DNA of 64,000 nucleotides from Elusimicrobiota bacterium (GCA_023249645.1 JAHFCF010000006.1:56124-120123), one strand, 5' to 3'. Counted from the stretch's first letter, positions 1,833 to 60,193 are shown. Translations and numbers: made by a program. The notes: generated by a model from the sequence alone, not told the origin.

Positions 1833-1887
1833 ACTGTGTCCGGACACAGTTGTTGGGCGCCAGTGGCCTACTGTGGTCGCCCACAGT
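1833..1887. repeat. Bipartite palindromic element: ACTGTGTCCGGACACAGT (1833-1850), 19-nt spacer, ACTGTGGTCGCCCACAGT (1870-1887); copy 1 of 5
   Basis: Two perfect or near-perfect 18-bp palindromes of the form CTGT-N8-ACAG. They sit between the amrB/A start and the end of gene 1914. The same pair recurs at 17089, 30383 and 60138, and a related single palindrome at 25153. Confidence 0.8.
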
Positions 1888-1913
1888 TCCATCGCTTGGC
1901 GTGCGGGTGGAAA

Positions 1914-2486
1914 TCAAGTACGGGTCTTCAAGCGCAGGGACTTGAGCACAGACTCGAAAGCCGGCAGATCGTCCTTGTAATCCTGGCCCGCGGCCTTGAA
2001 TGCGAGCACGAGGAATCCTTGTTTCAAGGGCAGGATGACGCGGTCCTCGGTGATCAGCGCGTCGAAGGGGGGGAAGGCCGTGCCCGTGGGGATGTCCAGG
2101 GGTTCGATGCGGTGCTTGCGGGAGCTGACGATCCTCGTCGCCGCCCGGCCCGCGATCGTGATCATTCTGGGCTTGGAGACGCGCCAGGCCTTGTCCTGGC
2201 CCAATCGTGCCTGCAGCGTCAGGAGGTAGTCTTGCGCCCCGCTTTGATGGGGCAGGCGCGTGGGGCTGTATTCGTCTTCCGGATGCGTCTCGATGTGGAT
2301 GCCCGGCCGAAAGCCCCGGGTCTTTCCCGGACCCAGGAGACTGGCGAGGCCCTCTTCGACCGGCCCGACGATCCATGGGGCCGGCACGTCATAGGAATAG
2401 GGTGCGCCCTTCGGGCTCACGACAGCGGCCTGAGCCGCTCCGGCGAGGATCAGGACGGCCAGCCTAACGGATGCGGCAGGCAGCAT
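1914..2486 (-). CDS. Hypothetical secreted protein (N-terminal signal peptide)
   Basis: 190-aa ORF with a hydrophobic N-terminus (LAVLILAGAAQAAVV). It overlaps the stop of the upstream paralog gene by 23 nt. No recognisable domain. Confidence 0.45.
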   Translation of the reverse strand: MLPAASVRLAVLILAGAAQAAVVSPKGAPYSYDVPAPWIVGPVEEGLASLLGPGKTRGFRPGIHIETHPEDEYSPTRLPHQSGAQDYLLTLQARLGQDKAWRVSKPRMITIAGRAATRIVSSRKHRIEPLDIPTGTAFPPFDALITEDRVILPLKQGFLVLAFKAAGQDYKDDLPAFESVLKSLRLKTRT

Positions 2487-4197
2487 ATTCCCAGGTTAAA
2501 GGAGATTCCATCAGCATCTCGACCATGATCCTGTTTTTTTTGGCTTCATTGAGCTTGGGAGCCGCCAGCCGCATGGAGAGCTCATCATACTTGAGGCGCA
2601 TGTTCTGGATGCTTGGATCGCTTTTTTTGAGGGCTTCGCACTCCGCGTGTTTGGCGGACCGCCATTCATCATTGAGGTGGCGCGCCTCTTGGTCAAAGCG
2701 CTCATCGACGGCCAATTGCGCAAGCTTCTCCTCGTCCTTGTCTTGCCGAGCTGATTGCTTTTGCTGATCCAGCGTCACTTGGCCAGCCTGTATTTCCTTC
2801 TTTGGATCAGCGCCATAATACCTGGAAATGAGATCTGCTCGGAAATCAGCAGAGGAGTCTTGAAACTTGTGGAAAATGTCCATCTCTCCATCGGGAAGAA
2901 GGTGGCCGCGTTTTTCCTTGAGTGCGTCGATGGCTTTGCGGTCAGTCTCGATCTGCGAGGGTGCAAGAGGGGTTCCTGAACTCTGAAGATCCTCTTCGAG
3001 TGCTTGGATCTTTTCGTTTAATTCCTGCATTTTATTGGAATAATAACGGTACTCCATCATCCAGGCATAGGTTTCATTGGCGTATTCATTGGTTTTGGGG
3101 TATACATTGTTTCCTCCGCCATGGGATCTGACATGGACGTGGCCCGCTTCATGGAGGAATGTGGCCGCCAAACATTCAATGGAAAAACGTTCCTTGGAGA
3201 TGGCCTCGATCGGCCGGATGATGATTTTGTAGCGGACGGTGTAGTCTGCATTTCGGAGAAGCTGTCCGTTCTGGTCCTTGGCTGTCGTCGTGATCGCGAA
3301 GTTGGGCGATGCGGGGTCCCATTGGATGATGGTGTGATTGCTCGCTACGGCTTCGATGGCTCGCCGCGCATCGGCCAGGGCGATGAGGTCCGTGTGCGGC
3401 GGCCGGCCTGAATCCACGGGCACGGCATGGACGGCCTCCCGCATCAGGGCGAGGATGGAGGCGTCGTAGACCGTGGACAGGGAGTCGACCTGCTGGAGGA
3501 GTTGGGCCTTGATCTGGGCGGGCGTCTGGACTTCGAAAGGCGCATGATCGGATAGGAAGCTGGACTTAATCACCGGCCAGTCAACCGTGTTTTTTCGATC
3601 GGCGCCGTCGAAGTGCGCGGAGAGCAGATAGAAGGCATTCATGCTGGAGGCTTTGTCAATGCCGAGGGGTTGGGACATCCAGGCAGATTGAGCCAGATGC
3701 AGTCCGAATCTTTTGAGCGCCGCGTGCGCGCGCGCCAGGCGTTTCTGCAGGCGCTCTCTTTTGGCCCGGACCGGGAGGGCGGTCGCATCCGCGGCGTCGA
3801 TGATGAATCGCGCGGTCTGGGCCAGGGTGAGCTGCTCTTCGGGCTGGGACATGATGAACGCGACGCGCTTCATCCTCAGGTATTCTTCCGGCGAAAGGCC
3901 CGAGAGCGCTTGCTCGCAGGCGCGGCTCCAGTCTTTGTCCGTGAGGCCGATCGCCGGCGCTTCCTGCCGGTCATAGCGTTCCCGGCATTTTTCCTGCGCC
4001 ACGGCTAGGATGTCCGTGGAGAGCATGGTCCGGCATTGCCAGTCCCAGTCGGCTCGGGTCAGGCCGTAGGGGGCTTCGTAGGATTTCTTGTATCGGCTCG
4101 AGCATCCGGCGGGGTCGAACGGCTGCGCCCGCAGCGATGGCGCGGCCCAGAAGACTGCGAGAAGAAGAAAAAAGCGTTTAACGGATCCGGCAGGCAT
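2464..4197 (-). CDS. Secreted HExxH-motif protein, putative zinc metallopeptidase-like (paralog A of a tandem pair)
   Basis: 577 aa with signal peptide MPAGSVKRFFLLLAVFWAAPSLRAQ. Carries a duplicated N-terminal motif C..RY..x..Y.L.R..WD..C, an FLHEAGHVHV motif and a C-terminal EYAACRIR tail. Collinear with paralog B at HTDLIAL, NHTII, YYGADPKKE and ACRIR. Confidence 0.55.
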   Translation of the reverse strand: MPAGSVKRFFLLLAVFWAAPSLRAQPFDPAGCSSRYKKSYEAPYGLTRADWDWQCRTMLSTDILAVAQEKCRERYDRQEAPAIGLTDKDWSRACEQALSGLSPEEYLRMKRVAFIMSQPEEQLTLAQTARFIIDAADATALPVRAKRERLQKRLARAHAALKRFGLHLAQSAWMSQPLGIDKASSMNAFYLLSAHFDGADRKNTVDWPVIKSSFLSDHAPFEVQTPAQIKAQLLQQVDSLSTVYDASILALMREAVHAVPVDSGRPPHTDLIALADARRAIEAVASNHTIIQWDPASPNFAITTTAKDQNGQLLRNADYTVRYKIIIRPIEAISKERFSIECLAATFLHEAGHVHVRSHGGGNNVYPKTNEYANETYAWMMEYRYYSNKMQELNEKIQALEEDLQSSGTPLAPSQIETDRKAIDALKEKRGHLLPDGEMDIFHKFQDSSADFRADLISRYYGADPKKEIQAGQVTLDQQKQSARQDKDEEKLAQLAVDERFDQEARHLNDEWRSAKHAECEALKKSDPSIQNMRLKYDELSMRLAAPKLNEAKKNRIMVEMLMESPLTWEYAACRIR

Positions 4198-5959
4198 CGT
4201 AGCTCTCCATTAACTTGTTATAGGCGAGATTCAGTTGTGCCCCTCGTCGGTTGAGCGCGTTTTTTTGGGATTCCGATAGTCCGGGTTCATGGGTTCGGAT
4301 GACAATGATGTTGATCTTTTTTCTCAAGTCATTGACGACAGGATCGTTGATGAGCAGGGATCGGCATTCCTCTTTTTTGGCAGTGCGCCATTCTTGGTCG
4401 CGTTGGCGTGTTTCAGCTTCGAAGTCCTCATCCGTGGCCAGTTCTTTGAGCACGGCTGCGCTTTTGATGTCCAGCGCCCATTTTTTTTGCTGCAGGATCG
4501 TCACCTGGCCGGGAAAGATTTCATCTTCTTTGGGGTCAGTGCCATAGTAATCACGGATCATCTCTTCGCGAAACTCAGCAGGCGAGCTCTGGAATGTTTC
4601 CAGGCCGAGCATTTCGGTCTCTGGCATGAAATGGTCCCGCAGGCGTGTGAGCGCTGCAATGGTTTTTGTGAGGTGTTTGCGATCGACCCAAGTCAGAGGG
4701 CTTGGCGAATGGTCGAGATTTTGAGTCAGTCTTTTTATTTGTTCGTTGAACCTCTGGCGCTTGTTCGAGAAATAACGCGCTTCCATTTGATGGGCGTGTA
4801 TTTCATCCGTGTAATTGTTTTTTCCTCCTCCTTGAGCATTGAGATGCACATGGCCGCCGACTTCATGCAAAAGAACTCCAGCTAAAAATTCCAGCGGGTA
4901 ACGGCTCGTTGTGCAAGGCTCTCCGGGTTTGATGGATACTTGATAGCGCCAGGTGCCATCCGCGTTTTTTATCGCTGGGCGGGGTAGAGCTTTCTCTGGT
5001 TTATCTGATTCGGTGAACGTTGTGGCGTAGCTTTTTGATTTGCGGTTTAAAACGATGATGGTATGGTTTAAAATGATGGTTTCAATGGTGTCTTGGACAT
5101 CGGATAGGGCGATGAAGTCCGTGTGCGGCAGCAGCCCTGAGTTGATGGGCACGGAATCGACGAGTTCGCGCATCATGGCGATGATCAGGGGATCATAGGT
5201 CCGTCGGCCCTTTTCGTCTTTGAGCGTGTTCAGGGAGGATATTTGGGCCAGGAGACGAGTCTTGACTTGGAACGGGTCCGGGCGCGTCGGTGCGGCCAGG
5301 CGCGGGGCCGGGCGTTTGGACGCGAGAAAAATGGGGGAAAGCCTGGAGGGCGTCAGGCCGGCGTTGTCAAAGAAATGCGCTGCTTTCCGGTGGAATTCCT
5401 CCGAGGTCTTGGCTTGACCCATCTCGACGGGGAGCGCTCTCAAGTCCGACTCGGCCAAGGAATGTGAGAATCTTTGCCTGGCGGCTTCGGCTTGTTTGAG
5501 GCGGATATGCCACCGTGCCCTTTGTATCAGAATTTTTGGATCCTTCGAATCACTCGTGTCGAACATGAAATCGAAGACATCAGCCACGGTGATCTTATTG
5601 TCCGGCTTTGAGAGGAAACCCCGGATGCGCTGAGCCCGCAGGTATTGTTCCGGGGACACGAATTCCTTCTGCGCTTGATCGCAGTAATCGCGCTCCCACA
5701 TCTCCCTGGTCAGACCGATGTTCTTGCCCTCGTCAGGGTCGTATTTCGCCTTGCATATCTCCTGGGCGATGATCCGGATGTCCGCGGGGACCATCCCCTC
5801 TTCGCATTTGGAATCCCACTCCTCTCGGTTTAAGGAATAAGTCCGATAGGTGTCTTTATACCGTCGTTTGCAATCTTCGATATAGACGGGCGTGACCCCC
5901 CAGGCGCGCGGGGCCATGAGGATCGCGAGAAGGATCAAATAGCGCGCGTGGTTGTGCAT
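4178..5959 (-). CDS. Secreted HExxH-like-motif protein, paralog B of the tandem pair
   Basis: The ORF track gives 4178..6007. The start is more likely the ATG at 5959 (MHNHARYLILLAILMAPRAWG signal peptide, with an AGAGG RBS 10 nt upstream). Motifs: LLHEVGGHVHL, HTDFIAL, NHTII, YYGTDPKED, C-terminal SYDACRIR. Shares the N-terminal Cys-repeat module with paralog A. Confidence 0.55.
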   Translation of the reverse strand: MHNHARYLILLAILMAPRAWGVTPVYIEDCKRRYKDTYRTYSLNREEWDSKCEEGMVPADIRIIAQEICKAKYDPDEGKNIGLTREMWERDYCDQAQKEFVSPEQYLRAQRIRGFLSKPDNKITVADVFDFMFDTSDSKDPKILIQRARWHIRLKQAEAARQRFSHSLAESDLRALPVEMGQAKTSEEFHRKAAHFFDNAGLTPSRLSPIFLASKRPAPRLAAPTRPDPFQVKTRLLAQISSLNTLKDEKGRRTYDPLIIAMMRELVDSVPINSGLLPHTDFIALSDVQDTIETIILNHTIIVLNRKSKSYATTFTESDKPEKALPRPAIKNADGTWRYQVSIKPGEPCTTSRYPLEFLAGVLLHEVGGHVHLNAQGGGKNNYTDEIHAHQMEARYFSNKRQRFNEQIKRLTQNLDHSPSPLTWVDRKHLTKTIAALTRLRDHFMPETEMLGLETFQSSPAEFREEMIRDYYGTDPKEDEIFPGQVTILQQKKWALDIKSAAVLKELATDEDFEAETRQRDQEWRTAKKEECRSLLINDPVVNDLRKKINIIVIRTHEPGLSESQKNALNRRGAQLNLAYNKLMESYDACRIR

Positions 5960-6012
5960 GGAGAAGCCTCTATAAGGAAAGATAACAGAAGCAGTCACAT
6001 CGCGCATGAGCC

Positions 6013-6098
6013 AAAAGACCTAATTAGGTCTAGGTCCTTTTCCAGCCGCTTTCTAGGTCTAAAGCTCCAGAGAGATTGGAGGTCCGCTGAGCTATGAT
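6013..6098 (+). promoter_or_regulatory. Promoter region of gene 6134 with a CTAGGTC(C/T) motif array and a -10-like TATGAT (6093-6098)
   Basis: Contains aaaagacctaattaggtctaggtcctttt (including the perfect 16-nt palindrome agacctaattaggtct), ctttctaggtctaaagc and ggaggtccgc, followed by gctATGATgt and an RBS ggagcaagcc ahead of ATG 6134. Confidence 0.35.
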
Positions 6099-6133
6099 GT
6101 AGGCATGTTTGAAAACCGGCGCAGGAGCAAGCC

Positions 6134-7801
6134 ATGAAACGCTTCCTGGCCTTGGCTCTGAGCTTGACGCTATCCGGGATGCCTGTACGCGCCTTTGCCG
6201 TCGTGGTGCCTTCAGGGGTTGGCTCCACGCCGAGGCCATTCATCCTCGCCGGCCTTCGCGCTGATCTGACTGAGCCGCAGAAGCTCATCGCGCGGCAAGT
6301 GGACGCTGCCGTGGCTTCTCTCACGGCTGAGCAGCTCCGCGCGGCTCCGAGCTTGGCAAGATATCGGGGGATCGATTGGGGAGATCCGGGCTACAAGGCG
6401 ATGGCGCGCTACCTGGAATTCTCCATCCTGCCCCAGGATTCCAAACCGGAGGTCCTGGCCGTACGGCTGGAGGAAGCCCGCGCCGGGGCTGGCCAGGCGA
6501 TCCAGGAGCAGATCCGCAAGGCCTTGGAAGATCGGCTGGCGAACATGACTTTGGGGAATCAGGAAGAGGCCGCGGCAGTGCTCGCTGAGTTGGACCGGGA
6601 GATCGCGGAGTTAAAGCTTCGCCAGACGTTCCCGCAGGAGGTCTCTCTGGGCTTTTCACACGCCGCCCTTCGTGTCAATGAGATGCTGCTTCAGATCACC
6701 GCATCCCAGGCTGTGGAGGAGGTCGTCGCGGCGCCGATGCCGCAGGCTGAAGAACGGAGCCTGCTGTCGCTGCCGAAAGGTCCCGCCCCCGAGGTCGTGG
6801 AAGCTGAGATCGTTTCTCCACAGGATGAGTACAGGATCTTCGATAAAGTGCTTTCAGGCCGCAACATCAGCAGGCCTGCCAGCGACCAAGCCAAAGAGCG
6901 GGGCGTCTTTATTCAGAAAAATTATCACGGCGGTGTGGGACAAATCAAGCTCCCTGAGGAAGCCCGGTATGTCGTCTGGTCCGGGGACGGGGAAGAGGGA
7001 ATCTGGCGCAGAAAAGACGACGGTCGCTATGAGAAATTGTCCGCCACGACCATTGCTGATCTGGCGTTGTTGACAAGAAACTTCGCGAGTCAGAAGGCGT
7101 CTGCCCAAGATCAGGCGTTTAATGAAAGGATGTATACCTCAGACCTGGATCTTAGAAAAACAAAGTTCTTGGATGTTCGTGGCCAGGAAATCGAATACGC
7201 CCCATTCTTCATCGTTAAAACTGGTTTATGGAGGGTCAATGCGGCTGCTTACCAGCCACCGAAGCTGCTGAGACCGCTTACTCTCAAAAATCATCTGGCC
7301 GGTGGTTGGTTGAGCCTTACGCTGGCGGCATGGCCTGGTTTTTTCCTTAACCCGGACCTCTTCACCTTGGCCACGCAGGATTTTACGGTCCTTGGATTGC
7401 TTATTGCATCTGGTTGGGCAGGCACAATAATTGTTGGTTTCGTCTTGAAAAAAAGACTGACAAACGATGAACAAGAAAAATTGATTAAGGATAGCCTTCC
7501 AGCTGCTTTCAAGGCATGGGCTTGCACGGATGAGGGGCGGATCCGGGTTTTGCTAACGGCTGCCATGCTCCCATGGTTGGCCCCCGCTGTTGTTTTTGGA
7601 GCCGGTGCTTTTGCTTTATGGTTTCTGCCGCATATGTTGACGGCTTCTCTGGGGACCGGTGTGTATGCCGCTTATTGCGCGCTGCGCGCCGGCCGGAGCT
7701 ATCGGGAAATGACCCAACGCCTTACGGATTGGAAAAAGGCCCAGCTGGGATTTCAGCCGAACGCCAAGGGACTTCCTTATTCAAGGAGCAAGAAGTCATG
7801 A
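6134..7801 (+). CDS. Hypothetical signal-peptide protein with Gln/Glu-rich coiled-coil region and C-terminal transmembrane helices
   Basis: 555 aa with signal peptide MKRFLALALSLTLSGMPVRAFA. The C-terminal 150 aa are hydrophobic (LTLAAWPGFFL..., LGLLIASGWAGTIIVGFVL, LPWLAPAVVFGAGAFALWFL). Its stop overlaps the start of the M28 gene (ATGA). Confidence 0.5.
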   Translation: MKRFLALALSLTLSGMPVRAFAVVVPSGVGSTPRPFILAGLRADLTEPQKLIARQVDAAVASLTAEQLRAAPSLARYRGIDWGDPGYKAMARYLEFSILPQDSKPEVLAVRLEEARAGAGQAIQEQIRKALEDRLANMTLGNQEEAAAVLAELDREIAELKLRQTFPQEVSLGFSHAALRVNEMLLQITASQAVEEVVAAPMPQAEERSLLSLPKGPAPEVVEAEIVSPQDEYRIFDKVLSGRNISRPASDQAKERGVFIQKNYHGGVGQIKLPEEARYVVWSGDGEEGIWRRKDDGRYEKLSATTIADLALLTRNFASQKASAQDQAFNERMYTSDLDLRKTKFLDVRGQEIEYAPFFIVKTGLWRVNAAAYQPPKLLRPLTLKNHLAGGWLSLTLAAWPGFFLNPDLFTLATQDFTVLGLLIASGWAGTIIVGFVLKKRLTNDEQEKLIKDSLPAAFKAWACTDEGRIRVLLTAAMLPWLAPAVVFGAGAFALWFLPHMLTASLGTGVYAAYCALRAGRSYREMTQRLTDWKKAQLGFQPNAKGLPYSRSKKS

Positions 7802-9683: not shown

Positions 9684-9783
9684 GTCCTCGGTCCGCCAAA
9701 GGGCCTATTTCAAGCTAGGTCCAAAGACGGCTCTTTTCTGGGTCCAAAGGTCCAAGGCGGCTGGGAGGCCTTGTCGATATAAT
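9680..9783 (+). promoter_or_regulatory. Promoter region of the M48 protease gene: repeated (C/G)TAGGTCC and GGTCCAAAG motifs and a TATAAT -10 (9778-9783)
   Basis: Sequence ctaggtcctcggtccgccaaagggcctatttcaagctaggtccaaagacgg...gggtccaaaggtccaagg...gtcgaTATAATgg. ATG 9796 lies 13 nt after the -10, so the leader is short or absent. Confidence 0.4.
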
Positions 9784-9795
9784 GGTCTCATTATT

Positions 9796-12660: not shown

Positions 12661-12670
12661 CAACGCATTG

Positions 12671-25001: not shown

Positions 25002-25048
25002 TGGCGGCATGGTGAAAAAAAGAGATTATTTTTTAAGCACTTCTTTAG

Positions 25049-25074
25049 TTTTACCTCCACCGGTGGAGGTAAAA
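25049..25074. repeat. Perfect palindrome TTTTACCTCCACCGGTGGAGGTAAAA in an AT-rich spacer
   Basis: 26-nt perfect inverted repeat centred on CCGG, 48 nt after the folC stop. It is flanked by T4/A4, so it is not a canonical terminator on either strand. Confidence 0.7.
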
Positions 25075-25152
25075 CGGAAAAAGGCCAATGATTTAAATTT
25101 GAATTTCATCTCAAGCTACCATCTTTTTTGCGACATTGATAATTTTTTCAAG

Positions 25153-25174
25153 CAACTGTTGCCGGCAACAGTTG
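25153..25174. repeat. Palindrome CAACTGTTGCCGGCAACAGTTG (CTGT-N8-ACAG type) upstream of the ROK kinase gene
   Basis: Same CTGT-N8-ACAG architecture with a CCGG core as the 18-bp element at 1833, 17089, 30383 and 60139. Lies 43 nt upstream of ATG 25217. Confidence 0.7.
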
Positions 25175-29392: not shown

Positions 29393-30364
29393 ATGCGAAA
29401 AAAAGAGAGTCTTTGGCTGGTGACGGGCGGGGCGGGCTTCATCGGCTCCAACATCGTGGCCGAGCTCGTGCGCCGCAAGAAGCGCGTGCGGGTCCTCGAC
29501 AATCTCTGCACGGGAAAGCCGGAGCACATGGCCTCCTTCCGCGGCCAGATCGAGTTCGTGCGCGGCGACATCCGCGAACCGCGCGACTGCCGCCGCGCGG
29601 CCCAGGGCGCGGATGTCGTCATCCATCAGGCCGCCCTGCGCTCCGTGCCGAAATCCGTGGACAACCCCGGCGGTTCGCATGATTCCAATGCGACGGGGAC
29701 CTTGAACATGCTCATCGCCGCGCGCGAGGCCAAGGCGAAACGCTTCGTGTACGCTTCGTCGAGCTCGGTTTATGGGGATACTCAGTTGTTTCCGCAACGG
29801 GAGGACCATCTGCCCCGGCCCGTGTCGCCTTACGCGGCCCAGAAGCTCGCGGGCGAGCACTACGCCATGCTGTTCACCAAGACCTACGGCCTGGAGACCG
29901 TGAGCCTGCGCTATTTCAATGTTTTCGGCCCGCGCCAGGATCCCGAGTCCCTCTATTCCGCGGTCATCCCGAAATTCATGGAGGCCGCCTACCTGGGAAA
30001 GACCCTGGAGGTCCACTGGGATGGGCGGCAGTCCCGGGATTTCACTCATGTGGCCAATGTGGTCGAGGCCAATCTCCTGGCTGCCGTGACCAAGACCGGT
30101 ATCGGCGAGAACTTCAACATCGCCAACGGCCGCAACTACTCTCTTCTGGACATCATCCGCGTCATCGAGGATATCGTGGGACGCCGGCTCAAGCGCCACC
30201 ATACCCCCATGCGCCAGGGCGACGTGCGAAAGACTTACGCGGACATCTCCAAGGCCAAGCGCCTCTTGGGCTACCGTCCCTGCATGGGCTTGGAGGAGGG
30301 CCTCCGGGATACCTGGAGCTATTTTGAGGCTGTTTATTTCCGGCATAAAAATAAGAACTCATGA
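29393..30364 (+). CDS. NAD-dependent nucleotide-sugar epimerase/dehydratase (UDP-sugar 4-epimerase-like)
   Basis: Sequence VTGGAGFIGSN (Rossmann) with YASSSSVYG and YAAQK (the SDR catalytic YxxxK). AGGAG RBS upstream of ATG 29393. Confidence 0.75.
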   Translation: MRKKESLWLVTGGAGFIGSNIVAELVRRKKRVRVLDNLCTGKPEHMASFRGQIEFVRGDIREPRDCRRAAQGADVVIHQAALRSVPKSVDNPGGSHDSNATGTLNMLIAAREAKAKRFVYASSSSVYGDTQLFPQREDHLPRPVSPYAAQKLAGEHYAMLFTKTYGLETVSLRYFNVFGPRQDPESLYSAVIPKFMEAAYLGKTLEVHWDGRQSRDFTHVANVVEANLLAAVTKTGIGENFNIANGRNYSLLDIIRVIEDIVGRRLKRHHTPMRQGDVRKTYADISKAKRLLGYRPCMGLEEGLRDTWSYFEAVYFRHKNKNS

Positions 30365-30382: not shown

Positions 30383-30432
30383 ACTGTGTCCGGACACAGT
30401 ATCTTCGCGAGGGAACTGTGGGCGCCCACAGT
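30383..30432. repeat. Bipartite palindromic element copy 3: ACTGTGTCCGGACACAGT (30383-30400), 14-nt spacer, ACTGTGGGCGCCCACAGT (30415-30432)
   Basis: Both halves are perfect 18-bp palindromes. Lies between the epimerase stop and the rfbB start. Confidence 0.8.
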
Positions 30433-30443
30433 GGGCCGCCTAG

Positions 30444-31457
30444 ATGAAACTTTTGGTGACTGGCGGCTTGGGTTTCATTGGCTCGAATTTCATAAGGCAT
30501 CTGCTTGCCACGCAACGTAATACTCGCGTCACCAACCTCGACCTGCGCACCTACGCGGGCAATCCGGCCAACTTGAAGGAGTTCGCCCGCGATGCGCGCT
30601 ATCGCTGGGTGAAGGGAGACATCGCCGATCCTCGCGTGGTGGACCGCTGCATGACGGATGTCGACGCGGTGGTCCATTTCGCGGCGGAGACCCACGTGGA
30701 CCGCTCCATCCTCGACGCCGCGGTCTTCTTGCGGACCAATGTGATCGGGACCCAGGTCCTCCTCGACGCGGCCCTGCGCCGCAAGATCGGCCGGTTCGTC
30801 CATGTCTCGACGGACGAGGTCTACGGCAGCGTGGCCAAGGGATTCTCCACCGAGGGCGATCGTCTGTGGCCCAACAGCCCCTACGCGGCCTCCAAGGCGG
30901 CCTCTGACCTCTTGGTGCGCTCCTATGTGGTCACGCACAAGTTGCCGGCCATCGTGACGCGCGCTTCCAATAATTTCGGTCCCTATCAGTATCCGGAGAA
31001 GGCTCTGCCTCTCATGATCACCAATTGGATGGATGGCGAGCCCTTCCCGCTCTACGGGGACGGCCGCAATGTCCGCGACTGGCTTTTCGTCCTGGACCAC
31101 GCCCGGGCCATCGCGCAGGTCCTTCGCCGCGGTCAGGACGGCGAGATCTACAACATCGGCGGGACTTATTCCTGCGACAATCGCGAACTCGTCGCGCGTG
31201 TCAGGACTCTCATGGGCGTGGGATCAGAGCTCGTGCGCCCGGTGCCGGACAGGCTGGGCCATGACCGGCGCTATGCCTTGGATTGCGGCAAGCTCAAGGG
31301 GCTGGGATTTAAGCATGCCTATCGGTTCGAGGAGGCTTTGCGCTTGACGGTGGAGTGGTACCGCGCCCATGAGTCCTGGTGGCGCCCCTTGAAAAAAGGG
31401 GAGGGATACCGCCAGTATTACCGCGGCCAATATTCCTCTCGTTTGAAAAGGAGCTGA
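30444..31457 (+). CDS. rfbB: dTDP-glucose 4,6-dehydratase
   Basis: Sequence MKLLVTGGLGFIGSNFIRHLL with YAASKAASD (YxxxK). 337 aa. Confidence 0.85.
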   Translation: MKLLVTGGLGFIGSNFIRHLLATQRNTRVTNLDLRTYAGNPANLKEFARDARYRWVKGDIADPRVVDRCMTDVDAVVHFAAETHVDRSILDAAVFLRTNVIGTQVLLDAALRRKIGRFVHVSTDEVYGSVAKGFSTEGDRLWPNSPYAASKAASDLLVRSYVVTHKLPAIVTRASNNFGPYQYPEKALPLMITNWMDGEPFPLYGDGRNVRDWLFVLDHARAIAQVLRRGQDGEIYNIGGTYSCDNRELVARVRTLMGVGSELVRPVPDRLGHDRRYALDCGKLKGLGFKHAYRFEEALRLTVEWYRAHESWWRPLKKGEGYRQYYRGQYSSRLKRS

Positions 31458-40354: not shown

Positions 40355-41686
40355 ATGACCCTGCGCAGAAAAAATCTTTGTGCCGTCATTCTGGCATGCT
40401 CCCTGACCGGGTGCGCGACACCCAAGCCCGCGGTGACTGTCTTCGAACTTGTTTCCAGGGCACCGGCGCAGCTGACGGCCCGTGAGGAATGCGTGGTCAA
40501 GAGCGTGATGCCGGGTTCGCCGGCCGCCCAGGGAGGGATCAGGGCGGGGGATGCCCTCACGGGGTTGAACCGGGACACCGCGCCTGCCGGGGATTTGAAT
40601 TTCGAGGCGTTCCTCTCCAGCCGCACGGGGCCGTTCCAAGTCGAACTCACGCGTCAGGGAAAGCCGCTGCAGCTGGATATCATGCACACGGAAGATCTTC
40701 ATCCTTTCGGGGTGACCTGCGATTTTGGCGACATCGAGGCCAGCCAGGACGAGGCGTTTGTGGCCATCAAGGGCTCGCTCGAGCTTCTGGTGCGCGCGGA
40801 AGTGATCGGTCCGGCGAGCTTCATCTGGGTCCGCCTTCAGAACCGCTCCACCAAGCCGCTCAAGGTCTCTCCGGATATGTTTTCGGCCTCGTCGGCGGAT
40901 TGGACGATCTTGAACCCCATCCGCTTCTCCGACATGGTCTCCTCTCTGCAGGCGATGGAGGTCTCGGGCCGCTTCGCGGGCAAGGGGGCTGAGTCAGCGA
41001 GCTATACCTTCGGCGTGGGCGACGCCCTCAGTCAGATCCCCAACATCATCCCCATCCCGGGAGCCGGCATGGGCGCCAACTTTCTTTTGAAGAACACGGG
41101 CCTGACGGACATGGTGAATGCTCAAACATCCTCCGTGACTTCCCTGCCCTTGGGAGAGGAGAACGGGCTCGGGCCGAGGTTCCGGGGCGCCAGCAAAGGA
41201 TTGGCGGCCACCTGGATCCCATCGAGCGGCAACGTGGACAGCGACCTGGCCGTGGCGGCCAACGAGATCATCCGCAGAAAACCCTTCCGGGAGACGGTGC
41301 TGACTCCGGGCTACGCCCAGGAAGGCTATCTGTATTTCGAGCAGCCGGACAAGCTGCCCTTGCGCCTGAGCCTAGATGCCGGCGAAGAGCATCTGGCGCT
41401 CCTCTTCGACGAGAAAAAATTCACGATGACCCCGCGGGAGCTGGCAGTCTACGCCCGGGGCGTCCCCGAGTTTTCGCACAAACAGGCGGTCCTGGCCGAC
41501 GGCCAGTTCTTCGAAGGGGAGATCGGCGCCTGGGATCGCATGGCGCACGGATTCAAGACCCGGATCCGCAAGAACGGCCAGGAAGTGAAAAGCAAACTGC
41601 TTCTTAAGGACATCCGGATCCTGAAGGTCGCGGGCCGCAACACCATCTTGGTGGCGGAGCCGCCCAAACCGGCGAAGCCTCAGTAG
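40355..41686 (+). CDS. Lipoprotein with PDZ domain
   Basis: Lipobox LTGCATP. PDZ-like VVKSVMPGSPAAQGGIRAGDALTGLN. The rest is unassigned. Confidence 0.6.
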   Translation: MTLRRKNLCAVILACSLTGCATPKPAVTVFELVSRAPAQLTAREECVVKSVMPGSPAAQGGIRAGDALTGLNRDTAPAGDLNFEAFLSSRTGPFQVELTRQGKPLQLDIMHTEDLHPFGVTCDFGDIEASQDEAFVAIKGSLELLVRAEVIGPASFIWVRLQNRSTKPLKVSPDMFSASSADWTILNPIRFSDMVSSLQAMEVSGRFAGKGAESASYTFGVGDALSQIPNIIPIPGAGMGANFLLKNTGLTDMVNAQTSSVTSLPLGEENGLGPRFRGASKGLAATWIPSSGNVDSDLAVAANEIIRRKPFRETVLTPGYAQEGYLYFEQPDKLPLRLSLDAGEEHLALLFDEKKFTMTPRELAVYARGVPEFSHKQAVLADGQFFEGEIGAWDRMAHGFKTRIRKNGQEVKSKLLLKDIRILKVAGRNTILVAEPPKPAKPQ

Positions 41687-41717
41687 CGGTAGTTGTCCGG
41701 CTTGTAGGGCCCATCGG
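41680..41717. repeat. Direct repeat, left copy: 38-nt duplicate of the ahcY 3' end (TCAGTAGCGGTAGTTGTCCGGCTTGTAGGGCCCATCGG)
   Basis: Identical to 42032-42069. It supplies the TAG stop of the PDZ lipoprotein gene. Confidence 0.85.
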
Positions 41718-42031
41718 CTGGCAGCATCCAACAGAGCTTTCAATGCGGTGCTGATCGCGCCGCATTGAAAGCAGCGCGTCCCCTTTCCGATGGGACGCGC
41801 AACAACGCAAAGGTCTTTAGAAATTCGACGCGAGTGAGGAATAGCTCTCGCGTCGGGCTTTCAGCCCCATGGAAAGCCATGGGACTGAAAGCTTTGGGAC
41901 AGAATCGTGTTCGGAGGATAGTTATCCACAAACTCTTCGCGCGAAGAGTCAGCGGAGGAACTTGGTACGCACCGAGTTGGTGGCAGTCACTCGCGCTTAA
42001 CTCGCCGCGCGGCGAGTCGGTGGATAAGTCT
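41718..42031. other. 314-bp hairpin-dense insert between the duplicated ahcY 3' ends; candidate structured ncRNA or miniature mobile-element remnant
   Basis: At least six consecutive non-identical stem-loops: gctttcaatgcgg/ccgcattgaaagc, gcgcgtccc/gggacgcgc, cgacgcgag/ctcgcgtcg, gctttcag..ccccatgg aaag ccatggg..ctgaaagc, ctcttcg/cgaagag, ctcgccg/cggcgag. No ORF. No tmRNA, RNase P or SRP signature. Confidence 0.4.
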
Positions 42032-42069
42032 TCAGTAGCGGTAGTTGTCCGGCTTGTAGGGCCCATCGG
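42032..42069. repeat. Direct repeat, right copy: the authentic 3' end of ahcY
   Basis: Identical 38 nt to 41680-41717. Encodes the conserved SAHH C-terminus ...[11 protein letters not shown]. Confidence 0.85.
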
Positions 42070-53601: not shown

Positions 53602-53603
53602 CC

Positions 53604-54065: not shown

Positions 54066-54282
54066 GACGTATCTCCCGTTGGCGAGAGCGGGGCGGCGGG
54101 TGATTTCAGGAAGGGGGGAAGGGAGGACGGCGGGGTCGGAGCTGGGGCTCTTTCGGTCTCGGCTTGCGATGGGCGACACGCTGCACCTCCCGGGCCGGCT
54201 CGGCGATTTGCGAATGGATAATTTATCAATTTTGGAGTGGACTGGCAAGGACGGCCGGGCTTCTGCTAAGATATTTGCGCTC

Positions 54283-54356
54283 ACCGATCGATTGCGGGAT
54301 GGTGAAATGGTATCACGGGTGGCTCTGAACCACTTATTCTAGGTTCGAATCCTAGT
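54283..54356 (+). tRNA. tRNA-Gln (anticodon CUG)
   Basis: Folded by hand. Acceptor TGCGGGA/TCCCGCA with U1-A72 and G73 (Gln identity). D-arm GTGA/TCAC. Anticodon stem GGTGG/CCACT with loop CTCTGAA. T-arm CTAGG-TTCGAAT-CCTAG. CCA encoded. Confidence 0.85.
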
Positions 54357-54386
54357 CCCGCAGCCACTTTAGTCGTTATAAGGACT

Positions 54387-54413
54387 GCTGAACAAAAAGC
54401 CCTCCGAAAGGAG
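54387..54413 (+). terminator. Rho-independent terminator after tRNA-Gln
   Basis: Sequence AGCCCTCC gaaa GGAGGGCT followed by TTTTTTG. Confidence 0.8.
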
Positions 54414-54434
54414 GGCTTTTTTGTATCATTATTC

Positions 54435-55697: not shown

Positions 55698-55758
55698 TAG
55701 CGTCCTATTCGGGTTGCGGACAACTCGGCAGAATTTTAAGTCGCTTCTTCTCGCCTGA

Positions 55759-56007
55759 CTAGATGAAGTCTCCGCCGCCGTTGATCGTGCCGCGGATGGA
55801 TGAGTGCTCGGAGCTGGCGCTGAATTTCTTGACGATCTCCGGCGGCCAGCCTCCGGACTTCGGGAAGTTCAGCACGTGTCCGGGCTGGAAGGCGTCGTTG
55901 ATGTCCTCCGTTTGGATCGCGAGGAAGATCGTGTTGATGTCGTCGATGGAGAAGCCGGTCTTATGCGCCAGTTCCCCCACGAGGGCGCCGTACCTGGGGT
56001 CGTTCAA
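55759..56007 (-). CDS. Small hypothetical protein (82 aa, TTG start)
   Basis: GC3-rich codon usage on the minus strand, consistent with real coding. No recognisable domain. Start codon non-ATG. Confidence 0.3.
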   Translation of the reverse strand: MNDPRYGALVGELAHKTGFSIDDINTIFLAIQTEDINDAFQPGHVLNFPKSGGWPPEIVKKFSASSEHSSIRGTINGGGDFI

Positions 56008-56089
56008 AAAAACCGGCAGTTCATTGATCGCTCCATGGCATTGTCAGGTCTGAGATTTGCTGTAATCTCCTTCTTCCAGGAGGAAACGA

Positions 56090-56856
56090 TCATGCCGATC
56101 AAGGGCGCTGAGCTGGCGTTGGGCCTGACCCTTCTGTTGTGCGCGCACGGTGCGTGGGCCGAGCCGGCGCATGCCAAGTACGGGCTCTCAGCCGTCCCCT
56201 TGGCCCAGGAGCATTCCTATCTCCAGGATCCCAAGCAGCCGGCGCCGGATTTCTGGAACTTGAACGCCTACTATGTGTCGCAGCCCGATGAGAGCGCCTG
56301 CTCGGCGGCCGCGGTCTCCATGGTCCTCAACGCCTTGCTCAACGCCGAGCGGCCGCGCGGCGATCAGGAACGCAACATCACGCCGGCGGGGCTCCTGAAG
56401 AAGATCCAGGGGGATTGGAAGCCGCGGCTCGCGCCGAAGGGTTTGGACGGCCGCCACGGCGTCACTCTGGGACAGCTCGAGATCTTCCTCAAGGCGGGCC
56501 TCAGCGAATACTCCCGATTCCCATTCATTGTGGAAAGGCATGAGGTCGCGGCAGTCGATGCCCAGGGGCTTGAGCGCCTGCGCGAGGCCCTGCGCGAGAA
56601 CGAGAGGAATGCGCACGACTTCATTCTGCTCCATTTCGTCCAGGACGAACTGACCGGGGCGCCGGGCGGACCGTTCCCCCATGTCTCCCCGGTCGGGGCC
56701 TATGACGCGGTCCGGCGGAAGGTCCTGATCTTCGACGTGGATCGAGATTGGTACGAGCCTTATTGGGTCTCGGATGAGGATCTGCTCCGGGCGCTGGCGC
56801 ATCCCACCAAGGCTTTCGGCCGCGGCGGCGTCCTTCGGGTCGGACGCGCTCCGTGA
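56090..56856 (+). CDS. Secreted phytochelatin-synthase-like protein (peptidase C83 / papain-fold)
   Basis: ATG 56090 with signal peptide (MPIKGAELALGLTLLLCAHGAWA). Sequence YVSQPDESACSAAAVSMVLNAL resembles the PCS catalytic-Cys motif (Q..YCGLASLSMVLNAL). Sequence PHVSPVGAYDAVRRKVLIFDVDRDWYEPYWVS resembles the PCS His/Asp region (HFSPIGGYH..LILDVARFKYPPHWV). The ORF-track 5' extension to 55804 is rejected. Confidence 0.5.
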
Positions 56857-56890
56857 ATATTTTGTATAAGAATATTGATTTCCAGGAAAG

Positions 56891-56917
56891 TTCAGTCAAA
56901 AGTCAAGACCTGACCCC
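56891..56917. repeat. Single-arm copy (TTCAGTCAAAAGTCAAGACCTGACCCC) of the 20039-20093 inverted repeat
   Basis: 27/27 nt identical to 20067-20093. Immediately followed by the AAGGAGG RBS and the ATG of the ferritin-like gene. Confidence 0.8.
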
Positions 56918-56928
56918 AAGGAGGGGCG

Positions 56929-57432
56929 ATGAAACAATCCGCGTTGCCTGAAGTTTTCCAGTTTGCGTTGAAGATGGAAGCCGACGGAGAGAGGCTGTAT
57001 CGGGCTATGGCCGCCAAGACGGCGGATGCCGGGGTGAAGAGCATCTTGAACGGCCTGGCCGACGACGAGATCAAGCATGCGCGCATCATCCGCGAGATGG
57101 CCCAGGGCGCCGTCCCTGAGATGGCGCAGACCCATATCCTGCAGGACGCCAAGAACGTGTTCTCAGGCTTGGACGTGAAAAAAGGCTTTGAAGCCGCGGG
57201 GGCCGATCAGGTCGCGCTCTACCGGCAGGCGCTGGATGTGGAGACCAAGTCGCGGGACTACTACAAGGCCCAGGCGGCGCAGGCCCAGGAGAAGGGCGCC
57301 CGGGATCTCTTCGAGAGGCTTTCCGCAGAAGAGGCGCGGCACATGTTCCTCGTGGACAACATGCTGCAATTCATCCAGCGGCCCAAGATGTGGCTCGAGA
57401 ACGCGGAGTTCAACCACCTCGAAGAGTATTAG
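56929..57432 (+). CDS. Ferritin-like diiron protein (rubrerythrin family, no rubredoxin domain)
   Basis: Two ExxH diiron motifs (DDEIKHARII and EEARHMFLVD). 167 aa. Confidence 0.7.
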   Translation: MKQSALPEVFQFALKMEADGERLYRAMAAKTADAGVKSILNGLADDEIKHARIIREMAQGAVPEMAQTHILQDAKNVFSGLDVKKGFEAAGADQVALYRQALDVETKSRDYYKAQAAQAQEKGARDLFERLSAEEARHMFLVDNMLQFIQRPKMWLENAEFNHLEEY

Positions 57433-58611
57433 TCACAGCACTCGGCACCAAATGACCTTGAGGTACTCTCCTTCCGGAGAGTCGACCGCTACGGGATGAT
57501 CCGGTCCGGCGCCGCTTTTGCGCAGGATCTCCACGCGCCGGCGCGCTGAGCCGGCCGCGGTGCGCAGGGCCTGCAGGAAATCCTCCCAGCCGAGAAGACC
57601 GCTGCAGGAGGCTGTCACGAGGAAGCCGCCTTCCTTAATAACGGAGAGAGCCAGACGGTTTAAATCAACGTATTTCTGCCTTCCGAGCGTATAGCCCTCC
57701 CGCGAGGCGATCATCTTGTAGGGGTCGAGCACGACCACGTCGTAGGTCTGATGGTTGGCCGCCATCTGGCGCAGGTAGGGGAAGGCGTCCACGCAGACGG
57801 TCTCGATGTCGACCTTGTTGAGCCGGGCGTTCTTCTTGCAGAGCTCGCAGGCTTCGGGGTCGAGCTCCACGGCCGTGACCTCCTGGGCGCCTCCCAGCTT
57901 CTTGGCATAGAGCCCGAAACCGCCGGTGTAGCTGCACACATCGAGCACCTTGCGTCCTGGACAAAAGGGCACAAGGGCGCTGCGGTTGTCGCGCTGATCG
58001 CAGAAGAAGCCCGTCTTGTGCCCTGTCGCGAGGTTGACCTCGAAATCCACCCCGTTTTCCGTGACGCGGGTGAAGCTCGGACCGCTGGGCTTGAGCCGGA
58101 AGCCTTCCATGCTCTCGGTATGGCTGCTGGCCCGGTGGAGGAATTTCGCGTTGGGATAAAGAGAGGCCAAGGCTCTCTCGATGCGGGCCGCCTGCTTGAA
58201 CATCCCCAGGGAATAGAACTCGAGCACGAGGAAGTCCCCATAGCGGTCCACGATGAGGCCGGGCAGGCCGTCGCCCAGGTCATGGACGATGCGGTAGGCA
58301 TCGGTCGCGGCGTCGAGCTTGAGGATGTCGCGGCGCAGCTCGACTGCGCGGCTGATGCGCCGGCTGAAGAAGGCCTCAGCGTCGAAGTGCGCTAAATCGC
58401 GGTCCACCAGCCTCAGGGTGATGAGGCTTTTGGGATTGTAGAGGGCCACGCCGTAGGGCGCGTCCGCCTTGTCGTAGACCGCGACCAGGTCGCCCGCCTT
58501 GGCCTTGGGATCGGTCTCGTCGATCATGCGCTTGAAGATGTTGGCCGAGGCCGAGGCGGAGCGCAGCTTGACCCACGGCAGGGGAGAGATGTGTCCGGCG
58601 GGCGCGGGCAT
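57433..58611 (-). CDS. rlmI: Class I SAM-dependent rRNA methyltransferase, RlmI/RlmK-like (PUA + MTase)
   Basis: Sequences VLDVCSYTGGFGLYA (SAM motif I), VVLDPYK, and an N-terminal PUA-like region. Confidence 0.7.
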   Translation of the reverse strand: MPAPAGHISPLPWVKLRSASASANIFKRMIDETDPKAKAGDLVAVYDKADAPYGVALYNPKSLITLRLVDRDLAHFDAEAFFSRRISRAVELRRDILKLDAATDAYRIVHDLGDGLPGLIVDRYGDFLVLEFYSLGMFKQAARIERALASLYPNAKFLHRASSHTESMEGFRLKPSGPSFTRVTENGVDFEVNLATGHKTGFFCDQRDNRSALVPFCPGRKVLDVCSYTGGFGLYAKKLGGAQEVTAVELDPEACELCKKNARLNKVDIETVCVDAFPYLRQMAANHQTYDVVVLDPYKMIASREGYTLGRQKYVDLNRLALSVIKEGGFLVTASCSGLLGWEDFLQALRTAAGSARRRVEILRKSGAGPDHPVAVDSPEGEYLKVIWCRVL

Positions 58612-58613
58612 GG

Positions 58614-60104
58614 TCAGCTCAGGGCGAAGAGGCGGCGGATGCGGGAGAGCAGGTCTCCGCGCGCGTCTTCGAGCCGTCGGCGGCCGGCGTCTTCCTGCAG
58701 GGCCGCGCGCGCGGTCTTCAGCTCCCCTTGGCGCTGGGCCAGGGTCGCCGAGATGCTCACCGCGATCTCCGGCCGCTTTTTAAGGATGTCTTTGAAGTCC
58801 TCGCGCTCGAGCCTGTAGGCGAGCACGTCGCTCAAGGCCACGATGGTCGCCGAGCGCGGCTCGCCGGTCATCAGAGACATCTCGCCCGCGAAGTCGCCGG
58901 GCTTCAGGCGCGCCACGCTGCGCGAGCGTCCGCCTTCCTCCAAACGCACCTCGGCCTCGCCTTCCTGGATGAGGAAGAACCAGTCCGCCGAGCCGCCCTG
59001 GCGGGCGATGGCTTCCGTGCGGGCGAAGGGCGCGGGCTTCAATCGTTGGGCCAGGGTCTCGATCTCCTCGTCGCTCAGGGCCTTGAAGATGTCCACGCCG
59101 CGCAGGGCCTGGCTGCGGCGCTGGAGTTCCGCATCCAGGGAAACGGCCTGCGGCGCGACTGTGAGGCAGCGCGCCGGGACGGCTAGGGAGATGCCGGCGC
59201 GGGTCAGGGCGAAGAAGGCGCGCAGCCGGACCTCGGAGGCGACTTCCTCGGACCGCGCCAGATCGCTCAGCCAGAAGCGGGCTCTATAGGACGCGTGGCT
59301 TGCCGTCAGCGCATTGAGGAGGCAATCCGGCGGCGGGTCAGCGGCCACGCCCGGGGGCGGGTCCTCGCGCAGGGCGGACTCCACGACGCCGATGACCTGG
59401 GTGGGGAGCCGGCCGGCATCAGCCTCGAAGTCGACTTTCATGAGACGAGGAGAGACTCGTCCCTGCCGGCGGCCCAGGACCATGACCACGCTCTTGATGA
59501 GGGTCCCGTTGGGGATGATGACCGTATCTCCGCCATCCGTCTCGATCGTGGTCTGGCGCCAGCGGATCTCGCGGACCACGCCCTCATCGACTCCCATGCG
59601 GATGCGGTCTCCGGGGGAGAGGGAATTTTCCAGGTGCAGGACCATGCCGCCCAGGATGTTGCCCAGCGTGTCCTGCAAAGAGAAGGCGATGACGGCCGTC
59701 ACGACCGCCGAGGTCGCCAGGATCCCGGTGAGGTTGGCTCCCTCGTGAGAGAGCACGGTCAGGGTGATGGCGACATAGGCCCCGGCCAGGATGAGGTCTT
59801 GGATGAGAGCCGCCAGGGTCAGCCGCAGTCCCAGGAGGATGAGGTCGAAGGCGACGGCCGCCGAGGTGTTGACCAGGGCGAGAGCCAGCAGGATGTGAGA
59901 GAGGCCGCGTACGATGCGGCAGAGGCCCGAATCCAGCGGAAGGCCCATGCGGCTGAAGATCGCGGCTGCGAAAAGTCCCGCAGCGGAAATCAGCGCGAGC
60001 AGAGCCGCCGCGGCGACGCGCCGGCGGGTGGCCGGCGCCAGGAGGTAGAGGAATCCCAGCGCGACCAGAAAGAGAGGGATGAACCAGAGATGGAGGAAGT
60101 TCAT
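58614..60104 (-). CDS. MscS-like mechanosensitive channel fused to a C-terminal cyclic-nucleotide-binding domain
   Basis: N-terminal TM helices plus the MscS beta-domain (DRIRMGVDEGVVREI...TVIIPN). C-terminal cNMP-binding motif (GDFAGEMSLMTGEPRSATIVA). Confidence 0.7.
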   Translation of the reverse strand: MNFLHLWFIPLFLVALGFLYLLAPATRRRVAAAALLALISAAGLFAAAIFSRMGLPLDSGLCRIVRGLSHILLALALVNTSAAVAFDLILLGLRLTLAALIQDLILAGAYVAITLTVLSHEGANLTGILATSAVVTAVIAFSLQDTLGNILGGMVLHLENSLSPGDRIRMGVDEGVVREIRWRQTTIETDGGDTVIIPNGTLIKSVVMVLGRRQGRVSPRLMKVDFEADAGRLPTQVIGVVESALREDPPPGVAADPPPDCLLNALTASHASYRARFWLSDLARSEEVASEVRLRAFFALTRAGISLAVPARCLTVAPQAVSLDAELQRRSQALRGVDIFKALSDEEIETLAQRLKPAPFARTEAIARQGGSADWFFLIQEGEAEVRLEEGGRSRSVARLKPGDFAGEMSLMTGEPRSATIVALSDVLAYRLEREDFKDILKKRPEIAVSISATLAQRQGELKTARAALQEDAGRRRLEDARGDLLSRIRRLFALS

Positions 60105-60137
60105 AAGTATATTCTAGCTAAAAGTCCCTAGCCTTGT

Positions 60138-60193
60138 GACTGTGTCCGGACACAGTCACTGATTTTTTGAACCGACTGTGGTCGACCACAGTC
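60138..60193. repeat. Bipartite palindromic element copy 4: GACTGTGTCCGGACACAGTC (60138-60157), 16-nt spacer, GACTGTGGTCGACCACAGTC (60174-60193)
   Basis: The second palindrome lies within the last codons (…LWSTTVG…) of the EndoQ-like gene. The first straddles its stop codon. Confidence 0.8.

Follow-up and report, generated by a model that had tools for sequence, protein, structure and literature searches.

Dispersed 18-bp palindromes in an Elusimicrobiota genome and their linkage to a family of HNH nuclease genes

A stretch of 64,000 nucleotides from an Elusimicrobiota bacterium (GCA_023249645.1, JAHFCF010000006.1:56124-120123), referred to here as the window, carried a family of short palindromes that in other genomes were located in or beside genes encoding one family of HNH proteins. 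The family was recognized from an 18-bp palindrome, P1 (ACTGTGTCCGGACACAGT), and its partner, P2 (ACTGTGG-NCGN-CCACAGT), both of which are versions of an 18-bp module of the form ACT-N12-AGT. The linkage of palindrome and HNH gene was observed directly and is regarded as highly probable. That the window palindromes are multiplied copies of the cognate site of an HNH nuclease with a ParB/KorB-like domain is, as a whole package, the explanation favored on balance.

Exact P1 occurred four times in the window (at 1833, 17089, 30383, and 60139, as originally predicted), against 0.01 expected from shuffled sequences, and the pattern CTGT-N8-ACAG had 8 matches against 0.31 expected. Compared with 300 first-order Markov simulations, the window contained 11 ACT-type 18-nucleotide (nt) hairpins (0.01 expected), 10 perfect 18-mer palindromes (0.49 expected), and 24 18-nt hairpins of any type with a stem of ≥7 bp (6.7 expected). 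A scan of all short palindromes revealed that the ACT-N12-AGT form was common to every perfect 18-nt palindrome in the window. In the perfect copies, the ends ACT and AGT were constant and CG was central in each, while the intervening bases varied yet stayed complementary. The six outermost bases on either side (ACTGTG...CACAGT) were the same in P1 and P2, and only the central six differed.

Linkage of the palindrome to an HNH gene family

A scan for exact P1 in one genome per species identified 59 loci (cited below by L numbers). All-against-all clustering of the open reading frames (ORFs) from these loci yielded one family that contained or abutted P1, an HNH protein of about 300 to 370 amino acids. 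This family was present in nine P1 loci (eight through clustering, with L035 added by tblastn) from eight genomes in two phyla. P1 was located 10 to 14 nt before the HNH start codon in L046 and L008, 82 to 231 nt upstream of the gene in L001 and L035, inside the inter-domain linker of the gene in L035, L040, and L052, and inside the C-terminal tail in L014, L024, and L029; within the HNH ORF, it was always read as (Q/S/E)LCPDTV. In Marinacidobacterales, each P1 copy with a resolvable context was in or just upstream of an HNH gene, and the sole unresolved copy (L038) was at the end of its locus, with flanks resembling the upstream region of L035. The HNH-family gene of L008 (5702-6430, minus strand; metagenome-assembled genome [MAG] JACQAZ) encodes 243 amino acids, keeps the N-terminal and middle parts, and ends before the HNH domain, with P1 still 14 nt before its start; this gene may encode a shortened protein that only binds DNA, or it may be a pseudogene.

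The association was also evaluated in 80 metagenome loci that were selected by protein profile alone, independently of the palindrome. An ACT-N12-AGT hairpin with a stem of ≥7 bp was present in 43 of these loci, and 47 of the 120 hairpins of that size began with ACT, compared to an expectation of 1 in 64. Within 271-nt windows over the linker (21.7 kb in total), 52 ACT-N12-AGT sequences were found when pairing was not required, and all four inner pairs were complementary in 34 of them (chance, 1/256). All but one of these 34 fully paired palindromes were in the same reading frame, and the in-frame linker position accounted for the majority of the palindromes in the 43 loci. The far flanks (206 kb) contained just two fully paired ACT-N12-AGT sequences, both approximately 450 to 500 nt upstream of the gene, and such palindromes were essentially absent beyond about 500 nt from the HNH gene. 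The remaining loci mostly showed a decayed copy at the same position (one mismatch allowed).

Among 48 distinct linker sequences, 89.6% of cells paired, versus 77.1% in shuffles, and 49 compensatory cells were counted, versus 12.8 in shuffles (0 of 500 shuffles as high). The peptide encoded by the linker palindrome varied (LRPDG, LGPDR, LVARR, and others), which places the constraint on DNA or RNA rather than on protein. Palindromes within ORFs were nearly always framed A|CTN|NNN|NNN|NNN|NNN|GT, giving L-x-x-x-x-V, a frame common to HNH linkers and tails (e.g., L061, 447-1523) and to the P2 copy in the EndoQ-family gene of the window (GLWSTTV). The central dinucleotide was CG in 33 of the 48 linker palindromes, and the exceptions were mostly CA or TG (TCCAGA and TCTGGA), which would match the pattern expected from deamination of methylated CpG. 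The common centers CCGG, GCGC, TCGA, and CGCG are all typical methyltransferase targets.

In all 14 Elusimicrobia-type loci examined, roughly 125 nt or less separated a palindrome from the start or stop of the HNH gene. In L147 and L148 it read ACTGTGGCCGGCCACAGT, with the arms of the window P2, and in L060 the gene was flanked by inverted palindrome copies. A motif, GGAAC-N16/17-CGTA, was conserved upstream of HNH genes (L046, L008, L060 to L064, L068, L077, L145, L147, L149, L151, and L153) and was usually adjoined by the palindrome, which was 4 to 18 nt upstream or directly downstream; in L145, L149, and L151 the palindrome was upstream of this promoter-like motif. The motif resembles promoters recognized by extracytoplasmic function (ECF) sigma factors, which suggests that expression of the nuclease may be stress dependent. 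Genes of the Acidobacteria type (L067, L073, L074, L080, L084, L087, L091, and L108) were part of a discrete unit of about 1.3 kb beginning CAACTTTCCCCTTGACAAC and extending from about −212 to +65 around the HNH ORF, with 80 to 86% nucleotide identity between copies and unrelated flanks. The conserved ~190 nt upstream of these genes contained too little covariation, in eight close sequences, for an RNA to be called.

The HNH family comprised at least 2,005 proteins at an E value of ≤1e-10, with at least 15 distinct paralogues on one 7.07-Mb contig, and included an Elusimicrobia-type clade of about 340 proteins, mostly one per contig. Against Pfam, the Elusimicrobia protein matched HNH (2.8e-7) and matched DUF222 (PF02720) below the cutoff (17.2 bits versus 24.4; E = 0.0034), and several Acidobacteria-type members had precomputed PF02720 hits. 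The C, H, and N columns of the HNH catalytic motif were invariant. Existing annotation of the family was limited to "HNH endonuclease," "McrA," or "hypothetical protein," neither NCBIfam nor PADLOC assigned it to a family, and no solved relative was found beyond the HNH motif. No tblastn match was obtained among 72,556 plasmids. Among 2.9 million viral contigs, there was one P1 match, and the sole protein match was a 34-residue stretch; viral contigs essentially lack the family.

An AlphaFold model of one member, P0243 (predicted local distance difference test score, 90.7; predicted template modeling score, 0.75), has an N-terminal helical domain predicted to resemble the DNA-binding domains of ParB, KorB, and SopB, followed by a linker and then the HNH domain. 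Foldseek matches to the model were weak overall; the only non-HNH matches with alignments of 104 to 130 columns were ParB and Spo0J structures, two of them complexed with parS. No ParB N-terminal CTPase domain was detected in the HNH protein. Proteins of the ParB/Spo0J type bind palindromic duplex sites as dimers.

The scan with exact P1 recovered about 10 loci each from two Elusimicrobia MAGs, 5 from a third, and single loci from four more, along with about 23 from one closed Acidobacteriota chromosome and a few from Marinacidobacterales genomes; P1 was multicopy in at least three Elusimicrobia genomes and in the one Acidobacteriota chromosome. Individual ORF calls at the 59 external loci were unreliable, and the table of their contexts was not used. 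In other Elusimicrobia, P1 was often lengthened by outer arms that differed among genomes yet were complementary (for example, GCGTGCTCN-P1-NGAGCACGC and GTCCACT-P1-AGTGGAC), and arrays of P1 in other genomes included the variants ACTGTGGTCGACCACAGT, ACTATGGTCGACCATAGT, and ACTGCGTCCGGACGCAGT. In the Acidobacteriota genome, P1 marked the tip or the edge of longer repeats, one of which is a 367-bp tandem array. In this array (L049, 5902-6764, chromosome OY970399.1), the unit is present in 2.4 copies with 93% identity, and each unit contains three ACT..AGT palindromes of different variants.

The palindromes of the window and their surroundings

The window was assigned to Elusimicrobia by best protein matches, and its genes were called by codon-position GC together with the public gene calls for the same strain. 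ACT-type palindromes were spread over seven loci in the 64 kb, all of them intergenic or at gene 3' ends (Table 1). The original prediction had described five loci, in or at the edges of spacers; these were recovered with the placement described, including a second palindrome downstream of P1 in three of them (spacers of 19, 14, and 18 nt for the pairs at 1833, 30383, and 60139, within the 14 to 19 nt given), a half-copy of the partner fused to P1 at 17089, and a related palindrome at 25153. The family proved wider, with further members at 41932, 41960, and 42000 and a weaker one at 57465; the last could be a chance match. The spacers of the pairs were unrelated to each other in sequence, and either P1 or P2 could come first in the direction of transcription. 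Five loci were between codirectional genes, two were between convergent genes, and none was in a divergent promoter region, a distribution that is not significant (n = 7).

Table 1. Coordinates of ACT-N12-AGT palindromes and of the associated direct repeats in the window
Feature	Position	Strand	Context
P1 ACTGTGTCCGGACACAGT, listed as solo copy	1833..1850	.	Between codirectional minus-strand genes 1914..2486 and 342..1757 (AMMECR1/Memo)
P2 variant ACTGTGGTCGCCCACAGT	1870..1887	.	7-bp stem; 19 nt from P1
P1 then directly TCGACCCACAGGT, resembling right arm of P2	17089..17119	.	Between rhomboid and CoaE genes, both plus
22-nt perfect palindrome CAACTGTTGCCGGCAACAGTTG, core ACTGTTGCCGGCAACAGT	25153..25174	.	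Between FolC-like and ROK kinase genes, both plus
P1	30383..30400	.	19 nt past stop of epimerase gene 29393..30364 (+)
P2 variant ACTGTGGGCGCCCACAGT	30415..30432	.	End 11 nt before ATG of dTDP-glucose dehydratase-like gene 30444..31457 (+)
Composite with ACTCTTCGCGCGAAGAGT (41932-41949), ACTTGGTACGCACCGAGT (41960-41977, imperfect), and ACTCGCCGCGCGGCGAGT (42000-42017)	41922..42028	.	~105 nt, REPIN/MITE-like (resembling doublets of repetitive extragenic palindromic sequences or miniature inverted-repeat transposable elements), between convergent genes
Two identical 38-bp direct repeats	41680-41717 and 42032-42069	.	Each reproduces the end of the AdoHcy hydrolase gene (last codons plus stop)
Weak candidate ACTCTCCTTCCGGAGAGT	57465..57482	.	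7-bp stem, 4-nt loop; in last codons of methyltransferase gene 57433..58611 (-)
P1	60139..60156	.	35 nt upstream of start of MscS/cNMP-binding gene 58614..60104 (-); first bases overlap EndoQ-family TGA stop
P2 variant ACTGTGGTCGACCACAGT	60175..60192	.	In 3' end of EndoQ-family gene 60156..61451 (-); translated GLWSTTV

Two of the loci are insertional in nature. The original prediction had placed the 60138-60193 copy in the end of an EndoQ-like gene, and this placement held. Orthologues of the EndoQ-family protein have 427 amino acids, with a tail of 9 residues after ..DF; the window protein ends in ..EEDF-KIH-GLWSTTV-GSKNQ*, a tail encoded by P2, the spacer, and P1, with GLWSTTV as the in-frame P2 and the TGA stop overlapping the first bases of P1. 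Comparison of these tails indicates that the P1/P2 pair replaced the C-terminal tail of this gene. A related Elusimicrobia contig (74% EndoQ identity) contained no ACT-type palindrome in 21 kb.

At the second locus, the 38-bp direct repeats are 352 bp apart and enclose a 314-bp insert, a chain of at least seven hairpins that contains the composite; the left repeat lies directly against the stop codon of the convergent gene for the PDZ protein. The arrangement at 41680-42069 suggests an insertion whose target duplication is unusually long. The composite has inverted ends of the A(G/C)TTATCCAC type, and a single long, REPIN-like hairpin was obtained on folding of the segment 41925-42025 (z of −4.1 for one strand and −5.7 for the other), unlike the P1/P2 pairs, which fold as two separate hairpins.

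The genes next to the palindromes were mutually unrelated and encoded an AMMECR1/Memo fusion, a rhomboid protein, CoaE, two sugar-nucleotide epimerases/dehydratases, a FolC-like protein, a ROK kinase, an MscS-like channel, the EndoQ-family protein, AdoHcy hydrolase, a PDZ protein, rubrerythrin, and a methyltransferase. Two palindromic structures of other types were also present. A perfect 28-nt palindrome that is not of the ACT..AGT type (GTTTTACCTCCACCGGTGGAGGTAAAAC, 25048-25075) contains CCTCC/GGAGG; it lies 47 nt past the stop of the FolC-like gene, with the palindrome at 25153 about 80 nt further on. A classical bidirectional terminator-like hairpin (AAAAAGCCCTCCGAAAGGAGGGCTTTTT, 54394-54421) is located just after tRNA-Gln (54293-54366), which indicates that this genome uses ordinary terminators, unlike the ACT..AGT palindromes.

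Interpretation and alternative explanations

The explanation favored on balance is that the window palindromes represent solo, paired, or composite copies of the ACT-N12-AGT module, usually with a central CG, and that this module would be the hallmark cis-site of an HNH-family gene with a ParB/KorB-like domain, distantly similar to DUF222/REP13E12. In most genomes the palindrome would be confined to the HNH gene, where it occupies part of the linker or C-terminal tail in frame, or to the approximately 500 nt around the gene. In a few lineages, among them one Acidobacteriota genome and the Elusimicrobia genome studied here, it would have been multiplied into intergenic regions and gene 3' ends. 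The multiplied copies would behave as repeats of the repetitive extragenic palindromic (REP) type, with an HNH nuclease as the partner enzyme instead of a REP-associated tyrosine transposase (RAYT). In the mechanism considered likeliest, a dimer of the N-terminal domain would read the two half-sites on duplex DNA, the HNH domain would nick or cut near the palindrome, and repair or recombination at the cut sites would copy, pair, or delete palindromes; new copies would thus be generated by nuclease activity. Any particular copying mechanism is doubtful. It is proposed tentatively, at less than even probability, that the gene is a selfish or domesticated element of a kind so far unrecognized, in which a ParB/KorB-like HNH nuclease gene carries its own in-frame 18-bp recognition site and has seeded REP-like solo palindromes in some lineages.

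Several observations weigh against this explanation. No HNH-family gene or relic was detected in the 64-kb window with 240 query proteins, spacers included, and five Elusimicrobia-type homologues that were looked up as candidates for this organism's own gene all came from other samples. With no HNH gene in the 64 kb covered, a cognate gene elsewhere in this genome is a prediction. The CAZZGQ Elusimicrobia MAG, with about 10 P1 loci, likewise had no HNH gene within the fetched pieces of its fragmentary assembly. The sites were identical in other assemblies of the same strain, with no strain polymorphism, and neither a target-site duplication nor a filled and empty pair at the same locus was obtained for any P1/P2 pair, so that any mobility of the short units themselves is putative. 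Covariation, furthermore, does not decide between a hairpin or cruciform and a symmetric duplex site that diverging paralogues read, since drift of specificity together with the protein would produce just as much covariation between paralogues.

Were the palindromes regulatory or architectural sites without mobility, they would be operators or parS-like sites for the HNH protein, used in autoregulation together with extra chromosomal sites, and the solo copies would have a role in regulating genes or organizing the chromosome. The operator-like positions of Elusimicrobia-type palindromes beside GGAAC-N16/17-CGTA, the predicted resemblance of the protein fold to palindrome-binding KorB and ParB, and the parS site inside spo0J in Bacillus subtilis would all fit such a role, which is nevertheless unlikely given solo copies between convergent genes and inside gene 3' ends, the occurrence of palindromes in arrays and long composite hairpins, their absence from the related Elusimicrobia contig, and the retained HNH catalytic motif, which argues for cutting beyond binding. 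Lower still is the probability that the palindromes are footprints of the HNH gene itself, with recombination between flanking palindromes deleting the gene and leaving solo or paired copies, in the manner of solo long terminal repeats. This history would require the gene to have been inserted independently many times within 64 kb, no spacer contained a protein-coding relic, and Elusimicrobia-type genes mostly occur once per contig; consistent with it are the presence of the same variant on both sides of some HNH genes (L071, L072, and L060), the Acidobacteria-type copies as discrete units in different flanks, and the unrelated spacers of the window pairs.

The two remaining alternatives are the least probable, and both bear on claims of the original prediction. 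Hairpins acting at the RNA level (terminators, processing sites, or mRNA stabilizers) would be compatible with the location of all window copies in probably transcribed regions, between codirectional genes or at 3' ends, and with their stable predicted folds (z of −4.5 for the pair at site 4). Read directly, however, the P1/P2 sites (1833-60192) had no T-run after the hairpin in the orientation in which the flanking genes are transcribed, the order of P1 and P2 varied relative to transcription, and the one hairpin of classical terminator form, at 54394, is different. Rfam matched only a tRNA in the window and nothing in six HNH loci even at an E value of ≤1. The symmetry usually continued through the center of the palindrome (CCGG, GCGC, TCGA, or CGCG), which an RNA loop does not need, and the stem mismatches on the sense strand (3 G.U, 9 A.C, and 12 other) showed no G.U preference, which fits a duplex site read by a dimer. 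Together with the position of the palindrome upstream of the promoter-like motif in some loci, these features favor a symmetric duplex (or cruciform) site, probably read by a dimer, over an RNA. Improbable to the same degree as RNA hairpins are operators of LexA or GntR. The formal match to the LexA box that had been pointed out is real, but the operator reading was rejected because the neighboring genes are unrelated to one another and no gene with an SOS function adjoins the sites; the inner positions of the palindromes, moreover, vary and covary. The GntR half-site reading failed on the same unrelated neighbors, and the functional diversity of these genes also speaks against an operator specific to a single pathway. 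Classical REP elements or bacterial interspersed mosaic elements (BIMEs) mobilized by a RAYT (an HUH Y1 transposase) encoded elsewhere rank last by a small amount in our estimate. The claim of a REP/BIME-type dispersed repeat was upheld as regards the unrelated flanking genes, the overwritten gene tail, and the multiple copies and arrays elsewhere, and the palindromes are, as expected of such elements, short, GC rich, extragenic, paired, and multicopy. It was not upheld as regards the partner: no RAYT/IS200-like transposase or Y1_Tnp homologue was found in the window or the 59 palindrome-bearing loci, and the HNH gene was the only recurrent neighbor. No GTAG/CTAC or CGTC/GACG tag flanked any window copy when flanks were read directly. 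A 333-amino-acid Y1_Tnp (IS200/RAYT-type) protein is encoded in the related Elusimicrobia contig L140 (14772-15773), about 3.5 kb from the EndoQ gene. This candidate partner was set aside: palindromes do not flank its gene, and neither the window nor any palindrome-bearing locus contains a homologue.

Comparison with known systems

Dispersed bacterial palindromic repeats are currently explained mainly by RAYT, and a second, unrelated enzyme class with a palindrome family of its own would broaden this picture. If the tentative reading as a selfish or domesticated element is true, the HNH gene would be an HNH-based counterpart of the RAYT/REPIN partnership and would offer a first way into the function of the large DUF222/REP13E12-type HNH families. 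The conserved in-gene palindrome is a concrete, testable candidate substrate for the present family and may also bear on the REP13E12/DUF222 repeats of mycobacteria, which have long lacked an explanation. Should biochemistry confirm the favored explanation, the palindromes could prove to be a new class of dispersed palindromic repeats with a cognate nuclease. For annotation, the EndoQ-family gene illustrates that palindromes can rewrite gene ends. A literature search returned no paper with the 18-mer and none linking REP elements to HNH proteins or DUF222/13E12 to ParB-like palindromes.

The functionally closest system is REP/REPIN-RAYT, although two of its defining features, the GTAG/CGTC tag and the Y1 transposase, are lacking here. 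The two have in common short GC-rich palindromes that are mostly extragenic and often paired or in longer composite hairpins, multiple copies of lineage-specific sequence, and a partner gene that carries or is flanked by copies. REP superfamilies are defined by a GTAG or CGTC tag at the palindrome end (PMC3733652), whereas the present family has a perfect 18-bp palindrome symmetric to its center. In place of an HUH Y1 transposase, the present palindromes have as partner an HNH (beta-beta-alpha-metal) nuclease with a putative ParB/KorB-like domain, its site is often inside the partner ORF and in frame, and its pairs consist of two variants side by side, whereas a REPIN is one unit inverted.

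P1 and P2 formally fit the gammaproteobacterial LexA box, CTGT-N8-ACAG, but they have a GC-rich spacer, other family members have ACTC instead of ACTG, and the host belongs to Elusimicrobia. Free-standing HNH homing endonuclease genes are likewise selfish-looking HNH genes with a specific DNA site; in the present family, by contrast, an intact site is within or beside the gene, and the genes are chromosomal. REP13E12, cited as a repetitive element of Mycobacterium (PMC10589994), shares multicopy genes for an HNH protein with a DUF222-type N-terminal region, although the relationship is distant, with DUF222 falling below the cutoff in the Elusimicrobia protein. Finally, the nuclease fusion, the absence of a partition ATPase context, and the dispersal of sites in arrays and inside gene ends separate the family from ParB-parS and KorB-OB, with which it shares a predicted similarity of fold in the N-terminal domain, palindromic sites of 13 to 18 bp, and, in the case of the parS of spo0J, a site inside the gene of its own binding protein.

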